Below are positions 32,868-50,603 of a stretch of 64,000 nt of DNA, piece after piece. The stretch is taken from NCBI GenBank assembly GCA_965208105.1, contig OZ242318.1, positions 352,001-416,000 on the forward strand, given 5' to 3'. The stretch's first letter is position 1; each line of letters begins with the position of its first letter. This stretch comes from Candidatus Latescibacterota bacterium. GTDB lineage: Bacteria > Latescibacterota > UBA2968 > UBA8231. The notes under the pieces were generated by a model. The model saw only the letters and a list, made by a program, of their open reading frames with translations, did not search any database and had not been told where the DNA came from. Both the position numbers and the translations under genes were made by a program.

Positions 32868-32923
32868 ATCATTGGCACAAAATTCTTTATGAGAAATACC
32901 TTATAATTTTTTGTAAATAAATC

Positions 32924-43327: not shown

Positions 43328-44620
43328 ATGGAAGAGATCAGGATTGCCCAAATAGCTTCCTTTGAAGACCGGGAAGTCCACCTGAGTGGCTGGCTCTACA
43401 ACAAGCGTTCCAGCGGCAAGCTCCATTTCCTGCAACTGCGCGATGGCAGTGGCATCGTGCAGTGCGTGGTCTTCAAAGGCGATGTCTCTGAAGAGGTCTT
43501 TGAGCTCTGCTCGGAACTTTCCGATGAATCATCAATCAAGGTCAGGGGACGGGTGAGGAAGGACCCACGGGCGCCCATAGGGTTTGAACTCGGAGTGACA
43601 GGCCTGGAGTGCATCCATCTGGCCCGGCCATATCCCGTCACCCCCAAATCCCACGGTGTAGCCTTCTTGATGGACCACCGCCACCTGTGGCTGCGTTCGA
43701 GCCGGACTACGGCAATTTTAAGTGTGCGCAGCGAGGTGGTAAAGGCCTGCCGCGACTTTTTGGAGGAGCGTGATTTTATCCTGATCGACGCGCCCATCCT
43801 CACTCCGGCTGCCTGCGAGGGGACGACTACCCTTTTTGAGACTGATTACTTCGGCAACCCAGCTTATCTCACACAAAGTGGCCAGCTCTACATGGAAGCG
43901 GCGGCCATGGCCTTTGGGAAGGTGTATTGTTTCGGACCGACATTCCGCTCGGAGAAATCCAAGACTCGTCGGCACCTGAACGAGTTCTGGATGGTCGAGC
44001 CCGAGATGGCTTTCTGCGATTTGCAAGGAAGCATGAACCTTGCTGAAGATATGGTAACCTTCGTCGTTTCCAGAGTGTTGGAACGCAGAAGGAAAGAGCT
44101 TGATCTATTGGAAAGGGACGTCACCAGGCTGGAGAAAATCCAGAAACCATTTCCCCGCATATCCTATGGGGAAGCGGTCGATTTGTTACATGCCAAGGGC
44201 AGTGATATCCAGTGGGGAACAGATTTGGGCGGCGACGACGAGACCTTGATCTCCGATCAGTTTGAATCGCCTGTTTTGGTGCATCGCTATCCTCTCGAGA
44301 TCAAGGCCTTCTACATGAAGGCGGATCCCTCAGACGGAGGTCTGGCCTTGTGCATGGACATGCTGGCACCTGAAGGCTACGGGGAAATTATCGGCGGCGG
44401 ACAACGCGAAGACCAAATTGGTGCGTTGGAGCGAAGGATTGATGTGCATGGCCTTCCCAAAAAGTCCTTTGAGTGGTATTTGGATTTGAGGCGTTACGGA
44501 TCTGTCCCCCACGCTGGTTTCGGCATGGGCATCGAACGCGTAGTAGCGTGGATATGCGGGCTGCACCATGTGCGCGAGACCATACCATTTCCCCGGACTC
44601 TGCACCGTTTGTATCCATAG
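43328..44620 (+). CDS. asnS: asparagine--tRNA ligase
   Basis: [44 protein letters not shown]. Confidence 0.96.
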
Positions 44621-44649
44621 TCTGTACAAATAGGAATAGGACGAGTTCG

Positions 44650-47526
44650 ATGAGTGAAGGCTCTTACAATTTCCGTGAAATTGAGAAGCGATGGCGGAAC
44701 TACTGGCTGGAGGCCGGAACCTTCAAGACCTGCGGCCCCGGCGAGGAAGGATTCAACCCGGAGCAACCCAAATATTATATCCTGGATATGTTCCCCTACA
44801 CCAGTGGGTCGGGATTGCACATGGGCCACCCCAAAGGGTACATCGCCAGCGATATTTACTGTCGCTACAAGCGGATGTGCGGGTTTAACGTGTTGCATCC
44901 CATGGGGTTTGACAGCTTCGGCTTGCCGGCAGAGCAGTACGCCCGGGAGAATAACATTCATCCCTCGGTGGCTACCGAGCGCAACATCGAGACCATCCGC
45001 GGTCAGCTCCAGTTTCTGGGTATGGCCTACGACTGGAACCGGGAGATAGCCACCTCCAGGCGGAACTACTATTGCTGGACTCAGTGGATCTTTCACCAGA
45101 TCTTTTCTAGCTGGTTTGATGGGGACTGCAAGTGGAAGGACGCCAGCGGCCGGGAAAACAACGGTAAGGCAAGGCCCATCGCCGAGTTGATCGCGGCTTT
45201 TGCGACAGGGCAACGTGGCTTCAGCGAGGCTGACAAAAAAGTGCTGGGTGAAGACGCCAGAAATGGGTGGGAAGCCCTGGATGAAGGTCAGCAGGCTGCC
45301 GTGCTCAATAATTATCGCCTGGCCTATCAAAAGGAAGTGATGGTAAACTGGTGTCCCGCGCTGGGCACGGTTCTGGCCAACGAGGAGGTGACCAACGAGG
45401 GCAGGAGCGAGCGGGGGGATCATCCCGTCTACAGGAGGCCCTTGAGGCAGTGGATGATGAGGATTACGGACTACGCCGACCGCCTGCTGGAGGATCTGGA
45501 TGCACCCGCGTTGCCGGATGGCGGGAGAACCTTCAGGCTGGAGTGGCCCGAATCCATAAAACTCATGCAACGCAACTGGATCGGCCGCAGTGCGGGTACC
45601 GAGGTTTTGTTCGATGTCCTCGGGCCGGGCGGCCAGGAAGTGGCGGATGAGTTGAATGTATTCACCACCCGCCCGGATACCCTGTTCGGAGTCACCTTCA
45701 TGGTGGTTGCTCCACAGCATCCACTCGTCGTCCAGGGCAGCGGCCATTACCTGGTGCCGGGGGAATGGCCTGGGGACATTGACCCGCGATGGAAGGGGGC
45801 GGGTCCGGGCCAGGAAATCCGGCAGGCTGTGGCCGCCTACATTGAAGAAGGCAATATTGCCACGCAGCGGGAAAGCCAGGAAAAGACGGGAATCTTTTCA
45901 GGAATAATGGCGCGCAATCCCGTGAATGGCCGGATTATCCCGATCTTCGTGGGGGATTATGTCAGCATGGAATATGGCTCTGGTGCGATCATGGCCGTGC
46001 CGGCGCACGACGAGCGCGACTTCGAGTTTGCCTGCAAGTACGGCCTGGAGATCGTTCGCGTGGTAGAAGGGCCTGACGGCATCGATGATGAATGTTATGC
46101 CGGAGATGGGATATCGATTAATTCCCCTGCAGCAGGGAAGGGCAACTTTGCAATCAACAGCCTTACGACTCCTGAAGCTAAAGCCAAAATCGCTGCAGAC
46201 CTGGAGCGTGTGGGCAGGGGAAAGAGGGCGGTCAATTACAAGCTGAGGGACTGGATTTTTTCGCGGCAGTGGTACTGGGGAGAGCCCTTTCCCGTGGCGG
46301 AACGGCCCGAGGGATTTTCCGTTGCCACGGATATGCCCGTTTACCTGCCCGAGATGGAGGATTTTCAACCACACACCTCGGAAGATCCCAACCGCCCGGT
46401 GACGCCGCCGCTGAGCCGGGCAGGGGACGATTGGAGGAAGGTTTTGGTGCAGGGGGTGGAGTGCCGGCGTGAAATCAACGTCATGCCTCAATGGGCGGGG
46501 TCGTGCTGGTACTACTTGCGCTTTATTGATCCTTCAAACGACCAGGTGTTTTGCCAGGAAAGCAAGGAGAAGTACTTCATGCCGGTGGACCTCTACATCG
46601 GCGGCGCTGAACACGCGGTCCTGCATTTGCTCTACTCCCGCTTCTGGCACAAGGTCCTCTTCGATCTTGGACACGTTTCCTCAGCCGAACCATTCAAAAA
46701 GCTGTTCAACCAGGGGATGATTACCGCAGATGCCTTTGCCGATGAGCGCGGAGTCTACGTTGACATACGCGAGGTGGAGTTCCGCGAGGGCGAACCCTTC
46801 AACGCGAGGACCGGTGAAAAGCTGCAGCGCTTGGCCGGAAAGATGGGAAAGCGCTACAAGAACGGGCTGCCCCCGGAGGAGGTGGGGTATGAGTTCGGGG
46901 TGGATACCTTTCGGCTGTACGAGATGTACATGGGGCCTCTGGAGGCCAGCGCGCCGTGGAGCATGGAAGGAATCCGCGGAATGCAGCGGTTCCTGCAGCG
47001 GGTATGGCGCAATTTCGTCGACCAGGGAAGAAATGCAAAGAGGGGAGGCCAGCTGACCCCGGAGCTTGAAAAGATCTTACATAGAACAATTAAGAAAGTT
47101 TCAGAACATATTGCTGGACTGAGGCTTAACACATCGATATCCACCCTGATCGAATTCAATAACAAGTTGGTGCAACTAAGGTCTCTGCCCCCTGAGGTGA
47201 CGCGAAATTTTCTTCTGTTGCTGGCGCCGTTTGCCCCGCACATCGCTGAAGAGATTTGGGAAATCTGGGGATTTGGCAGAGGAGATATATCCAGCGCAAG
47301 GTGGCCGGAGGCCGATGACGAATTGACCAGGGAGGAAACGGTAACCTTGCCCATTCAGATCAACGGCAAGGTGAGAGGCAGTGTGGATGTCGCGGTCGAT
47401 ATTGAGGAAGATGATTTGCGCCGGATAGTGCTGGGGATGGAGAACATCAAGCGCCACGTTGCCGATGAGGCGAGTGTAAAGCGCTTCATTGTCGTGCCCG
47501 GGCGCATCGTGAATATCGTAGTTTGA
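44650..47526 (+). CDS. leuS: leucine--tRNA ligase
   Basis: MFPY.SG.GLHMGH, FTTRPDT, EHAVLHLLY, KMGKR, C-terminal IVNIV. Confidence 0.96.
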   Translation: MSEGSYNFREIEKRWRNYWLEAGTFKTCGPGEEGFNPEQPKYYILDMFPYTSGSGLHMGHPKGYIASDIYCRYKRMCGFNVLHPMGFDSFGLPAEQYARENNIHPSVATERNIETIRGQLQFLGMAYDWNREIATSRRNYYCWTQWIFHQIFSSWFDGDCKWKDASGRENNGKARPIAELIAAFATGQRGFSEADKKVLGEDARNGWEALDEGQQAAVLNNYRLAYQKEVMVNWCPALGTVLANEEVTNEGRSERGDHPVYRRPLRQWMMRITDYADRLLEDLDAPALPDGGRTFRLEWPESIKLMQRNWIGRSAGTEVLFDVLGPGGQEVADELNVFTTRPDTLFGVTFMVVAPQHPLVVQGSGHYLVPGEWPGDIDPRWKGAGPGQEIRQAVAAYIEEGNIATQRESQEKTGIFSGIMARNPVNGRIIPIFVGDYVSMEYGSGAIMAVPAHDERDFEFACKYGLEIVRVVEGPDGIDDECYAGDGISINSPAAGKGNFAINSLTTPEAKAKIAADLERVGRGKRAVNYKLRDWIFSRQWYWGEPFPVAERPEGFSVATDMPVYLPEMEDFQPHTSEDPNRPVTPPLSRAGDDWRKVLVQGVECRREINVMPQWAGSCWYYLRFIDPSNDQVFCQESKEKYFMPVDLYIGGAEHAVLHLLYSRFWHKVLFDLGHVSSAEPFKKLFNQGMITADAFADERGVYVDIREVEFREGEPFNARTGEKLQRLAGKMGKRYKNGLPPEEVGYEFGVDTFRLYEMYMGPLEASAPWSMEGIRGMQRFLQRVWRNFVDQGRNAKRGGQLTPELEKILHRTIKKVSEHIAGLRLNTSISTLIEFNNKLVQLRSLPPEVTRNFLLLLAPFAPHIAEEIWEIWGFGRGDISSARWPEADDELTREETVTLPIQINGKVRGSVDVAVDIEEDDLRRIVLGMENIKRHVADEASVKRFIVVPGRIVNIVV

Positions 47527-47548: not shown

Positions 47549-47576
47549 TTGCCCCATAAGATAAATTATGTAAATA
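47549..47576 (+). other. dif-like recombination site (left)
   Basis: TTGCCCCATAA-GATAAA-TTATGTAAATA, 11-6-11 architecture. Confidence 0.7.
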
Positions 47577-47594
47577 TTCGGGCTTGCTCCCGTT

Positions 47595-48539
47595 TCAAGA
47601 CATCCGAATATAATCCGATGCGTTGTTCACCAGATTCTCGCGGTTCTCATAATATCGCATGGTGGTCTTCAAATCTTTGTGGCGAAGATGCGCCTGTACT
47701 TGCTGTGGCTTGGCGCCGCCCTCAATTGCCAGTGTGCAACAGGTATGGCGAAACATATGCGCGGTGATCTGGTGGGGAATCCCCGCCGTTTTCGCCCGCT
47801 TTTTGACAATTAAATTAATCGACTGATCGGTCAGTGGTTTGCCGTGAGACAGGTTGGGGGACAGACTGATAAATACCTTGCCATTCGCATCGTAGCCCTT
47901 TCTTTCCAAAATCTCCCTGTAATTGTTCAAGTAGTGGGCCACAACCGGTTGAAGTTTAATGACCTGGGGAACTCCGGCCTTTGTCGCGGGCAGGGTGAGA
48001 ATGTAAAATGCACCTTCCTGGCTGATATCGCCCCAGGACATTTGGGCGGCCTCTGAACGACGCAGTCCTCCATAGGTAAGCAAAAAAACTATGGCCGCGT
48101 CCCTGGCCCGGGCCAATTCGTTTTTATCTTTTTCGATGCTTTGGAGGATCTCCTGCAACACCTTCGTAGAAATAGCCTTGTTGCTGAGAGTGCCTTCGAT
48201 CCGATAGCCGCGGACCAAAGCAGAGTCGGCCGGATTGTTTTCGATGAAGCCAGCAGCAACCAACATCTTGAAAAAGCTTTTTAAGCTGGCGAGTTTGCGA
48301 TTGATGGTACTGCGCTTGAGGCCACTGGCGGCCAGGCCGTTGCGGAAGGAGATGACCTCAGCGAAGGTGACTGCGCGGACCGTTTCTATTGAAACGGCGT
48401 TTGTGCCGAAAAACTGGCAAAGGTCCGCGTGATAAGCCCGCTTGGTTCGCTCAGAGAGCTGGCCGGCGATGAATTGCGCCAGAGGGTCGTCTGGATTGAC
48501 CGGGTGGTTTTGGCGAACTGCCGTAAGGTTGGCTTCCAT
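47595..48539 (-). CDS. XerC/D-like tyrosine recombinase
   Basis: SAM-like N-domain (SERTKRAY..DL..F; STINRKLASLKSFF); catalytic GLRRSE, TK, HMFRH, LRH, RYY. Confidence 0.93.
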   Translation of the reverse strand: MEANLTAVRQNHPVNPDDPLAQFIAGQLSERTKRAYHADLCQFFGTNAVSIETVRAVTFAEVISFRNGLAASGLKRSTINRKLASLKSFFKMLVAAGFIENNPADSALVRGYRIEGTLSNKAISTKVLQEILQSIEKDKNELARARDAAIVFLLTYGGLRRSEAAQMSWGDISQEGAFYILTLPATKAGVPQVIKLQPVVAHYLNNYREILERKGYDANGKVFISLSPNLSHGKPLTDQSINLIVKKRAKTAGIPHQITAHMFRHTCCTLAIEGGAKPQQVQAHLRHKDLKTTMRYYENRENLVNNASDYIRMS

Positions 48540-48654
48540 GGCCTGAAATTCGGATGGGAAACTCCGGGTGTGATATTTCCAAATATAAAGGCAGGAGGCA
48601 AAGTTGTCATTAAAAACAGGAGTGGTCCCGAGTGGACCATGGATTCAGCCGGTA

Positions 48655-48682
48655 ATTATCTAGAACAGGCATTATCAGTAGT
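48655..48682. other. possible third recombinase-binding site
   Basis: ATTATCTAGAA-CAGGCA-TTATCAGTAGT, 11-6-11 with partial dyad. Confidence 0.35.
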
Positions 48683-48718
48683 TTGATTTTGCAGTGGCAG
48701 CCGGGGGAAATCAGCATT

Positions 48719-48746
48719 TGTTTACATAGTTTTTATTATGCGATCA
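48719..48746 (-). other. dif-like recombination site (right, inverted)
   Basis: minus strand TGATCGCATAA-TAAAAA-CTATGTAAACA. Confidence 0.65.
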
Positions 48747-48761: not shown

Positions 48762-50573
48762 TCATGATCTGCCAAACATCCGATCCAACCTTTTTATTGG
48801 CACCTTCAGCATTATCGGCCTGCCATGGGGACACACAAAGGGTTCGCGGGCATTCAGAAGTTGGTGAATAATATTCTGCATCTCGTTTTCCGTGAGCTTT
48901 TGGCCGGCGCGGATGGAGGTGTGGCAGGCATAAGAGGCAGCCACTGCTTCCTGCAAGCTGTCCCTCTCTTCTTTTTCTTCCAGAAGTTCGTTGACGATTT
49001 TGTGGAAGATGTCTCCTTCTCCCCAGTCGGTCAAATTGCTTGGAATTGCATCGACAATTACTGTCCCGGGCCCAAAATCGCGGATCCCGAATCCCAATCT
49101 TTCAAATAACTCCCGCGCCTCCCGAATAACCTCCATTTCCAGGGCATTTGCATTGACTGTCAGAGGAAAGAGAAGTTGTTGGGAGGCAACCCCTTCCTCG
49201 GCAAAACACCGAAGAGCTTCCTCGTAGCGAATTCTCTCATGGGCTACGTGCTGGTCAATTATGACAACCCCATCCTCGATGGGTGAAAAAATATACTTTC
49301 TATGCAACTGCCAAAGCGCCGGAGCCGATTCGAGTTTTTTCAGGGAATTTAGATTGCTTTGCCCCTCCCGGCTGGTCCTTTCCAATCCCTCCGCCCCAAA
49401 ATCCGAAGGCTCCCGAAGAGATGGGGAGATCCGGTCAAGATGAGGCCGATCTTCTTTCGGATAATCAACTTCCAGGGTGTGAGCACCCTTCTCCTCTCCT
49501 GGAGGAAAGCTCATTCCCGGAGACTCCCCGATGGTGACGGGTTGATCCTCGGGCTCGTGTTGACGGTAAGACTGAAAACCGGTTTCAGGTCCATGTAGAG
49601 AACGCCGCACAGTCTCTTCTATGGCCTTGCTTACCCTTCTTTCATCGGCAAAGCGAACTTCCCTCTTTGTCGGATGTACGTTCACGTCGATCTTCCGCGG
49701 GTCCAGTTCGATCCATATTACGAAGGAAGGATGGCGGTCCCTGGGCAGCAATCCTCCATAACCTCGATAGACGGCCTGGCTGAGGGGACGGGAAGTTATC
49801 GGCCGTCCCCGCACGACCAGGAACTGCTTCGCCTTCGAACCTGTGCAAGCCGCCGGTAGGGAAAGAAATGCCTCGACGCCGATTCCATCATCATCTCCCC
49901 GGGCATGAAGCAGGGATTCGGCCGTGGGGCCCAATATTTCCTCCGCTCTCCCCTTTTGGCCGTTTGAAGCCGATAAATCGAGGATTTGCCGCTCTTCGTG
50001 TACCAGCCTGAATCCTGTCCGGGGATACGCTACAGCCAACCGCACCACAGCCTGGGTTATGTGGCGAGTTTCCGTTTCTATCCGCCGCAGGAATTTTCTC
50101 CGCGCCGGTGTGTTGAAGAAGATATTGCGCACCGACACAGTGGTACCTCGAGCCCGGCCGATTGAAACAGGGTCCCTGCGAATCCCTCCCTCGACAGCGA
50201 GGCGGGTGCCTTCCAGGGCTCCGGCTGCCCGTGTTTCGATGGTCATGCGGGAAATTGCGCCAATGCTGGCCAATGCCTCCCCTCTGAAACCCAGGGTGGC
50301 GATGGCGAACAGGTCAGAAGGAGAGGACAATTTGCTGGTGGAGTGGCGCTCAATGCATATTTCGAGGTCTTCCGGGGACATTCCCACCCCATCGTCCACA
50401 ATAGTTATGGACTGCCTGCCGCCTGCGACTACCTCGATGTGAACATGCCTGGCTTGTGCGTCGATGGCGTTCTCTACCAATTCCTTGACCACCGAAGCAG
50501 GCCTGTCGATTACTTCGCCCGCGGAGATTTTTTGAATCAAGTTTTCCGATAGTTTGTGAATTTTCACGGACAT
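48762..50573 (-). CDS. mutL: DNA mismatch repair endonuclease MutL
   Basis: AGEVIDRPASVVKEL, GFRGEAL, DVNVHPTK, DQHVAHER, CPHGRP. Confidence 0.97.
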   Translation of the reverse strand: MSVKIHKLSENLIQKISAGEVIDRPASVVKELVENAIDAQARHVHIEVVAGGRQSITIVDDGVGMSPEDLEICIERHSTSKLSSPSDLFAIATLGFRGEALASIGAISRMTIETRAAGALEGTRLAVEGGIRRDPVSIGRARGTTVSVRNIFFNTPARRKFLRRIETETRHITQAVVRLAVAYPRTGFRLVHEERQILDLSASNGQKGRAEEILGPTAESLLHARGDDDGIGVEAFLSLPAACTGSKAKQFLVVRGRPITSRPLSQAVYRGYGGLLPRDRHPSFVIWIELDPRKIDVNVHPTKREVRFADERRVSKAIEETVRRSLHGPETGFQSYRQHEPEDQPVTIGESPGMSFPPGEEKGAHTLEVDYPKEDRPHLDRISPSLREPSDFGAEGLERTSREGQSNLNSLKKLESAPALWQLHRKYIFSPIEDGVVIIDQHVAHERIRYEEALRCFAEEGVASQQLLFPLTVNANALEMEVIREARELFERLGFGIRDFGPGTVIVDAIPSNLTDWGEGDIFHKIVNELLEEKEERDSLQEAVAASYACHTSIRAGQKLTENEMQNIIHQLLNAREPFVCPHGRPIMLKVPIKRLDRMFGRS

Positions 50574-50603
50574 TCGGCGAGACTCCACCTTAAAACGGGT
50601 GGT

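Follow-up and report, generated by a model that had tools for sequence, protein, structure and literature searches.

A probable chromosome dif locus with a linked recombinase gene and paired inverted sites at the replication terminus of a Latescibacterota bacterium

In the genome of a Candidatus Latescibacterota bacterium (GenBank assembly GCA_965208105.1; here G000), a gene encoding an Xer-like tyrosine recombinase lies between leuS and mutL and is bracketed by two inverted 28-bp sites of the dif type. The interval forms part of a stretch of 64,000 nucleotides (contig OZ242318.1, positions 352,001 to 416,000 of the forward strand), which is referred to below as the window. The locus is probably the chromosome dif (dimer-resolution) locus, placed at the replication terminus and organized in a way peculiar to one Latescibacterota family, with the recombinase gene linked to the site and a second site in inverted orientation. 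A first-pass annotation of the window, made from its letters and open reading frames (ORFs), had offered two readings, namely an autonomous dif cassette carrying its own recombinase, mobile or invertible, or an undescribed chromosome dimer resolution locus with paired sites. With the sites located at the terminus, the second is the better of the two.

The site pair at the replication terminus

Both 28-mers are read directly from the window sequence at the positions and on the strands first proposed, with their D-like arms inward. In each site a GC-containing (C-like) arm points outward, and an AT-only centre of six bases separates it from an AT-rich (D-like) arm that points inward, toward the gene. 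The spacers of the two sites are unlike at two of the six positions. The core common to both, CATAA-N7-TATGTAAA, occurs twice in the window against an expectation of 0.01, and two or more copies were present in 0 of 100 shuffles. Over the whole genome (4,846,116 bp), zero-mismatch matches to this core occur only at site 1 and site 2; with up to two mismatches allowed, there are 15 matches, compared with 19 for a reversed control pattern. A position matrix was also trained on 94 distinct sites from other genomes, excluding G000 and its congener. Site 1 (37.8 bits) and site 2 (28.2 bits) ranked first and second genome-wide among about 9.7 million positions on both strands, and the third-best score in the genome was 22.7 bits. 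Chance AT-rich matches were rejected on the basis of the shuffles, the core scan and the matrix ranking; the sites are thus distinct from background AT-rich DNA, a point on which the first-pass annotation had made its proposal depend. Neither the core pattern scan nor the matrix scan found another dif candidate elsewhere in the genome. In a repeat search the pair appeared as an inverted repeat of 20 nt with 85% complementarity and 1146 nt separating its arms, and the same search found no other substrate-like repeat associated with the linked recombinase gene.

Two facing weak matrix matches (22.7 and 19.8 bits) were also seen at window positions 32870-32923. They lie in AT-rich intergenic DNA 15 kb to the left of the locus, in the part of the window with the lowest GC content.

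Over the whole chromosome, the cumulative G-C curve peaks at position 400,937 (window position 48,937) and is lowest at 2,979,876, about 3 kb from the only gene with a DnaA domain (2,982,680-2,983,165). Because the skew maximum falls here and dnaA lies at the opposite minimum, the locus is placed at the replication terminus to within 1-2 kb. In uniqueness and position the pair has the properties of a chromosomal dif, being a near-unique site where the replichores converge and the GC skew switches. The GC skew of nearly all orthologous loci with sufficient flank likewise changes sign, from plus to minus, directly beyond the gene. The genome also encodes an FtsK whose gamma domain scores 103 bits.

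Sister families possess one conserved dif-type site, which shares the AT-rich arm, has a conserved spacer and lies about 2 kb from leuS. The skew switch coincides with this site in six of seven loci, and no recombinase gene was found within 4 kb of it. Since the sister-family dif is of the same kind and has the same AT-rich arm, the sites described here derive from the classical dif of the class.

The genes leuS and mutL converge on the interval, and by the ORF list the recombinase gene is the sole credible gene between the sites (Table 1). Site 1 starts 22 nt beyond the leuS stop and 18 nt beyond the stop of the recombinase gene. Site 2 is located 179 nt upstream of the recombinase start and 15 nt beyond the mutL stop.

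Table 1. Features of the locus (window coordinates) and the Cre-like genes found in the same slot in two relatives (locus coordinates)
Feature	Position	Strand	Basis or remarks
Site 1, dif-type, 28 bp	47549..47576	+	Sequence; rank 1 matrix score
Terminus-linked Xer-like tyrosine recombinase gene, 314 aa (P0001)	47595..48539	-	ORF, translation, Pfam
Promoter-like -35/-10 pair for the recombinase gene (predicted), inside the bracket	48582..48610	-	Consensus scan, 10/12 matches
Site 2, dif-type, 28 bp, inverted relative to site 1	48719..48746	-	Sequence; rank 2 matrix score
leuS, left flank, reads toward terminus	44473..47526	+	Pfam LeuRS editing, class I synthetase and anticodon-binding domains; synteny in relatives
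mutL, right flank, reads toward terminus	48762..50588	-	Pfam MutL_C, DNA_mis_repair and HATPase_c_3; synteny in relatives
Slot with the Cre-like gene (309 aa) of G016	L031:2834-4006		Flanked by inward-facing dif-type sites
Slot with the Cre-like gene (319 aa) of G018	L032:4006-5226		Flanked by inward-facing dif-type sites

The linked recombinase

The product of the linked gene, P0001, belongs to the tyrosine recombinase superfamily, with matches to PF00589 (93.6 bits, cut-off 27.1) and to the SAM-like N-terminal domain PF02899 (47.3 bits). It is not a member of any of the more specific families with which it was compared. The scores were 126.4 bits for NCBIfam XerC (TIGR02224, cut-off 335.15), 120.1 bits for NCBIfam XerD (TIGR02225, cut-off 329.6), 107.2 bits for archaeal XerA (NF040815, cut-off 220), 72.7 bits for XerS (NF003462, cut-off 267) and 39.2 bits for the Fim-type invertase (NF007371, cut-off 222). 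The best solved relatives are Xer-like chains (E = 1e-15 to 1e-6); the XerH chain 5jjv aligns with E = 2.6e-6 over residues 123-297 only. The P0001 stretches GLRRSE, HMFRH, LRH and RYY align onto catalytic stretches of E. coli XerD (1a0p), which we take to supply the catalytic Arg, the His-x-x-Arg pair, the His and the Tyr. Judged by this alignment, the catalytic motif set of P0001 is complete, in agreement with what had been noted at first.

When combined in a tree with XerC-like and XerD sequences from the class, all 14 linked recombinases included formed one clade with a stem of 1.84, outside the group of XerC, XerD and an integron-type integrase. Origin as a recent XerC or XerD duplicate was rejected on account of this separate, long-stemmed clade. 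The tree was made by a quick method and carries a long-branch warning on the deep join, and the claim is therefore limited to P0001 not being a recent copy of XerC or XerD. By sequence, the recombinase is a distinct Xer-like lineage of Latescibacterota.

Conservation in related genomes

Orthologues with 60-82% identity were found in 18 of 24 genomes of the same family. The 16 genomes examined from three other families of the class had none and gave XerC/D-type matches only, at about 27%. Among the family genomes without an assembled orthologue are G003, G011, G012 and G015. Each genome with the gene has one strong match, the gene being single-copy, and the 18 family genomes all have leuS, the recombinase gene and mutL in this order wherever the contig reaches. 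Comparison of G000 with its congener, the two being collinear over 3.9 kb at 75% identity, revealed that the arms of both sites are kept and that the spacers and the surrounding intergenic DNA have changed, with gaps in the DNA flanking site 2.

A scan with one genome per species yielded 56 orthologous loci, all from metagenome-assembled genomes of the group and overlapping the 18 above. Counted at 20 bits or more, a dif-type site lies within 400 nt past the recombinase stop in 40 of the 56 loci, and a convergent inverted pair is present in 32. The pair encloses the recombinase gene alone, as in G000, at 6 loci and mutL together with the recombinase gene at 26. The remaining loci have a downstream site only (8, of which 4 have a short left flank), an upstream site only (2) or no site (14, of which 3 have short flanks). 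Across the 40 loci, and through the flips described below, the linked gene has remained within 18-60 nt of a site. The sites are thus conserved around homologues, and so this expectation of the first-pass annotation was borne out. Since a single slot is used and both synteny and site linkage persist across relatives, the locus is best regarded as a vertically inherited chromosomal module and not a mobile one.

At loci L154, L157, L122, L166 and L169, the usual site is absent from the intergenic DNA between the recombinase gene and leuS, and a distinct two-arm motif containing TTACGTAA lies past the stop codon. Comparison of these loci suggests that the site and its binder have co-diverged in the TTACGTAA subclade.

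XerD is kept and XerC has decayed

The recombinase had been described as lone and as a possible single-Xer system. It is alone in the interval but not in the genome, where nine PF00589 matches include XerD-like and XerC-like genes; the second proposal is unsupported, given an intact XerD and a catalytically degenerate XerC-like gene in the same genome. The XerD-type gene scores 317.6 bits, slightly below the equivalog cut-off and above the subfamily cut-off, and its motifs are intact. A gene of the XerC/D type lies outside the window beside a topoisomerase I gene (G000:C1:2155323-2156297; L022:1001-1963, minus strand). In its product, the XerC-like protein of G000, three catalytic residues are gone (the His of H-x-x-R, the second His and the Tyr); the frame, the C-terminal end and the full length are kept.

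The C-terminus of the XerC-like protein was read across all 25 family genomes. The catalytic His and Tyr are lost in 13 of them (G000, G001, G002, G005, G006, G007, G011, G014, G016, G017, G018, G019 and G020), the orthologue is intact in 10, and in 2 it was not found. XerC is intact in all 13 sister-family genomes read (of 16) and in all 5 further complete genomes of the clade with flipping brackets that is described below. Of the 13 genomes with a dead XerC, 12 have a bracketed recombinase gene at the terminus. None was found in the remaining one, G011, whose assembly is 84% complete. On the tree of the linked recombinase (22 scored rows), at least three changes of XerC state are required. 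The motifs of XerD are all kept in 30 of 30 loci and in 6 more, a count that leaves aside G002, G005, G007, G014, G016, G018 and G019, in which XerD was not read. The direction of these changes is consistent, and it points to a recombinase gene at dif that may have made the catalysis of XerC, but not that of XerD, dispensable.

The best surviving alternative, although an improbable one, is that the sites are an ordinary XerC/XerD dif, served by XerD with the XerC-like protein or with another partner, and that the bracketed recombinase is a passenger with a different substrate. The sites do have the classical 11-6-11 form, their AT-rich arm is the same as in sister families with only XerC and XerD, XerD is intact everywhere it was examined, and similar sites stand around a Cre-like gene in G016 and G018. 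Set against this are a XerC-like protein in G000 without three catalytic positions and a linked gene that has complete motifs, stays close to a site through flips (with a site present at 40 of 56 loci) and has no other substrate-like repeat associated with it.

The second site and the promoter region

A promoter role is predicted for the -35/-10 block inside the bracket (Table 1). This block is nearly invariant between G000 and its congener, and the adjoining intergenic DNA has diverged. A block of 33 nt on the 5' side of the promoter-like element (window positions 48641-48673) is also nearly invariant between the two genomes amid diverged surroundings, and may be an operator.

Site 2 could itself be an operator-like site, at which the recombinase or XerD regulates the recombinase gene, or else a decaying relic of an old duplication. 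Compatible with this are its position on the upstream side, 179 nt from the start of the gene and about 110 nt from the conserved promoter-like block, its score, which is lower than that of site 1, and the absence of a partner site at the 8 downstream-only loci or its placement beyond mutL at 26 loci. The probability of such a role is nevertheless low. The two-arm architecture of site 2 is complete and its arms are kept in the congener; partner sites recombine in relatives, as flips and identical spacers indicate; and a position beyond mutL, as in most relatives, is unsuited to an operator of the recombinase gene.

Replacement of the bracket content

In G016 and G018, which have no orthologue of the linked gene, the leuS-mutL slot holds a gene for a Cre-like recombinase on the opposite strand (E = 1.7e-19 to Cre). 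G018 has three dif-type sites, and XerC is dead in both genomes. At least one replacement of the bracket content has thus taken place, and no other observation favours the cassette idea as strongly.

A 3-kb insert in G007 lies between leuS and the recombinase gene and is flanked by two direct dif-type sites (L044:6365-9533). It contains an ORF of 497 aa for a transporter-like membrane protein and one of 384 aa for an amidohydrolase-like protein, but no recombinase gene, and has the appearance of cargo that was captured at dif.

The segment is bounded by inverted sites of the XerC/D type, as a dif module is, and the first-pass annotation had accordingly considered an autonomous mobile cassette. 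In this form the locus would be comparable to the modules of Acinetobacter plasmids (a 'D module') and, with its own recombinase, would move between replicons. The geometry of an inverted pair with D-like arms inward, the Cre-like gene that occupies the same bracket in G016 and G018 in the manner of a cassette swap, and the 3-kb cargo between two direct sites at the same place in G007 all speak for it. Such mobility is very unlikely, as each genome carries a single copy, and in all 18 family genomes that have the gene, as across the 56 loci, this copy occupies the leuS-mutL slot. Moreover, the gene represents one clade, its composition is unremarkable, and mutL, a core gene, is also inside the bracket in most relatives. 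No Rfam families or tRNA genes were found in or near the interval, and no phage or plasmid genes were found near the locus. The reading as an autonomous mobile cassette is therefore not supported.

Inversion of the bracket

In G010, the recombinase gene and its two sites are flipped between a class II aminoacyl-tRNA synthetase gene on the left flank (74% identical) and mutL; the orthologue of this synthetase stands left of leuS in G000. A clade of 24 loci has the bracket of mutL and the recombinase gene in both orientations, with 8 flipped, and sister rows differ in state. At least six changes of orientation are required on the tree, including that in G010, although this count is rough because the clade is weakly resolved and the tree was a quick one. 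Identical spacers occur in 6 of the 32 pairs, all within this flipping clade; none of the 6 further brackets around only the recombinase gene has them. As judged from these comparisons, the brackets in relatives have recombined on an evolutionary scale.

Three further features of the loci that carry flips were observed. The long leuS of G010 is gone from the terminus slot (L112/L113; G010:C1:305887-308334), and a shorter leuS type, 47% identical, lies about 675 kb away. In the flipping clade, a third dif-type site lies between the class II synthetase gene and leuS (L123-L168; e.g. L137:11887-11914), with a conserved spacer and a slightly altered AT-rich arm. Some loci of this clade have a fourth dif-type site about 5.5 kb beyond the bracket. 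No counterpart of the third or fourth site was found in G000.

The situation in the species itself is different. Contigs of three studies (X16, X1 and X2) span the whole interval from leuS to mutL, both sites and the gene included, in the order of the window; those of X1 and X2 come from strains about 2.5% different, X5 gave only short pieces, and contigs could miss a minority or rare form. No strand-change joint at the sites was present in the contigs of the three studies, the joints listed being inside leuS and from conserved stretches of other organisms. An inversion between G000 and its congener was considered and rejected, since the 3.9-kb regions are collinear. A comparison of their spacers for hints of exchange between the sites was uninformative, as the spacers are AT-only hexamers. 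The earlier description of the segment as invertible thus holds on an evolutionary scale in relatives, in G010 and in the sister-clade brackets of mutL and the recombinase gene, but no inversion was seen in this species, where the contigs of three studies have one orientation and the spacers are unlike.

An active switch in this species, in which inversion of the gene by its own enzyme would be appreciably frequent and would affect regulation, is the least probable explanation, for although the inverted pair encloses the gene with its own promoter and flips are documented among relatives, the spacers are unlike at two of six positions, G000 and its congener are collinear, the contigs lack a strand-change joint (a minority form could escape them), and the promoter travels with the gene, so that a flip would not switch it off.

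Relation to known systems

The closest systems by working principle are the gene-linked modules XerS/difSL and XerH/difH and the XerL system (10.1101/2021.09.12.459815); the enzyme described here falls outside all three by sequence. XerS/difSL of streptococci and lactococci and XerH/difH of Helicobacter and Campylobacter are presented in a review as single-recombinase systems in which the gene lies beside the site at the terminus, forming one module (PMC5357621). The present locus resembles both in that an Xer-family gene stands immediately beside a dif-type site and an FtsK gamma domain is present. It differs from both in that P0001 is outside the XerS and XerH families by sequence, two inverted sites are present instead of one, and XerD and a XerC-like gene remain. 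Compared with difSL, which has 31 bp and an 11-bp centre, the G000 site has 28 bp and a central region of about 6 bp, and only the adjacency of gene and site is common to the two. The arms of the G000 site also differ from the difH arms given in the same source (PMC5357621).

The locus and the canonical XerC/XerD-dif system have several features in common: the site is 28 bp long, lies at the terminus and combines an inner palindrome with outer arms that differ; the AT-rich arm is that of the sister-family dif; and XerD is intact. In contrast to that system, the recombinase gene is linked, catalytic residues of XerC are lost in G000 and 12 other family genomes, and the site has an inverted duplicate. 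With the pdif sites and dif modules described from Acinetobacter plasmids, the locus has in common genes bounded by inverted Xer sites, here with the D-like arms inward. Unlike those modules as described, it is chromosomal, single-copy and confined to the terminus, occupies one slot family-wide, and has the recombinase as its cargo; no movement was found. Two opposed dif sites at the terminus of a circular chromosome are known from Lactobacillus delbrueckii ssp. bulgaricus, in which they lie within a 47.5-kb inverted repeat (PMC5345009). Here the repetition is limited to the 28-bp sites, which enclose a recombinase gene in an arrangement that is old and has been conserved in different genera. 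A search of the literature in full text, supplements aside, yielded no account of inverted dif sites enclosing a recombinase gene at a terminus, nor of XerC decay beside a linked recombinase.

Proposed working of the locus

We propose that a third, separately descended Xer-like gene has been inherited vertically beside dif, in a manner comparable to xerS and xerH. Site 1, 18 nt past the gene stop and at the skew switch, would be the primary resolution site. Site 2 would be its inverted duplicate, and the two together would make the recombinase gene and its promoter a potentially invertible segment. The linked recombinase would be the catalytic enzyme at the sites, acting alone or with the intact XerD bound to the AT-rich arm; these two options appear about equally likely. 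It may thereby have rendered the catalysis of XerC dispensable, and FtsK with its gamma domain is the likely controller. The bracket would flip when the spacers match and be locked when they are unlike. As the spacers in G000 are unlike, inversion between site 1 and site 2 should be rare, and each site should recombine mainly with its copy on the sister chromosome. Because the promoter-like block is inside the bracket, a flip would not be expected to silence the gene. The sites and their uniqueness, the terminus position, the conservation and synteny, the flips in relatives, the decay of XerC and the integrity of XerD are shown by the data; the binding and cutting partners, the order of strand exchange, the dependence on FtsK and any benefit of the second site are inferred in this scheme.

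A more far-reaching version may be put forward tentatively, as a possibility with the greater weight of probability against it. A foreign tyrosine recombinase would have settled at dif and taken the place of XerC in catalysis with XerD, leaving XerC as a full-length pseudo-recombinase whose active site was lost at least three separate times. Inverted duplication of dif would then have turned the resolvase gene, with or without mutL, into a flip-flop cassette at the meeting point of the replichores, with swappable content such as the Cre-like gene in two genera.

Several points weigh against the reading of the locus as a gene-linked dimer-resolution system. At least 12 genomes with the linked gene keep an intact XerC, and replacement of XerC is therefore not obligatory; as the genomes are kin and not independent, the XerC pattern may also reflect few events. 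No site reaches 20 bits at 14 of the 56 loci, and the count of flips is a rough one. The sites resemble a classical XerCD dif and persist in G016 and G018 with a Cre-like gene, and so they are not tied to one enzyme; they could be served by XerD with another partner. Both arms are altered in the TTACGTAA subclade, which weakens the argument that an invariant AT-rich arm reflects XerD binding. Finally, two inverted dif sites are expected to complicate dimer resolution, according to the study on L. delbrueckii ssp. bulgaricus (PMC5345009).

Significance

Dimer resolution is usually seen either as the work of XerC and XerD at an unlinked dif or as that of one linked recombinase (XerS, XerH, XerA or XerL) at one site. 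The locus of this Latescibacterota family mixes both schemes, in that a linked third recombinase occurs together with an intact XerD, a XerC that is decaying to a non-catalytic form, and two inverted dif sites. A single dif would be expected, and a pair is regarded as harmful.

If the linked enzyme works with XerD, the family would provide a case of natural partner replacement in a heterotetrameric recombinase, and with it a natural test of the asymmetry needed for control by FtsK. If the enzyme works alone, a new single-recombinase system would have arisen on top of the classical one, with the intermediate stages still alive in related genera. The inverted pair also forms a natural flip-or-exchange cassette at the terminus, and the heterologous spacers of G000, set beside the identical spacers of its flipping relatives, yield a testable prediction on how inversion may be controlled.

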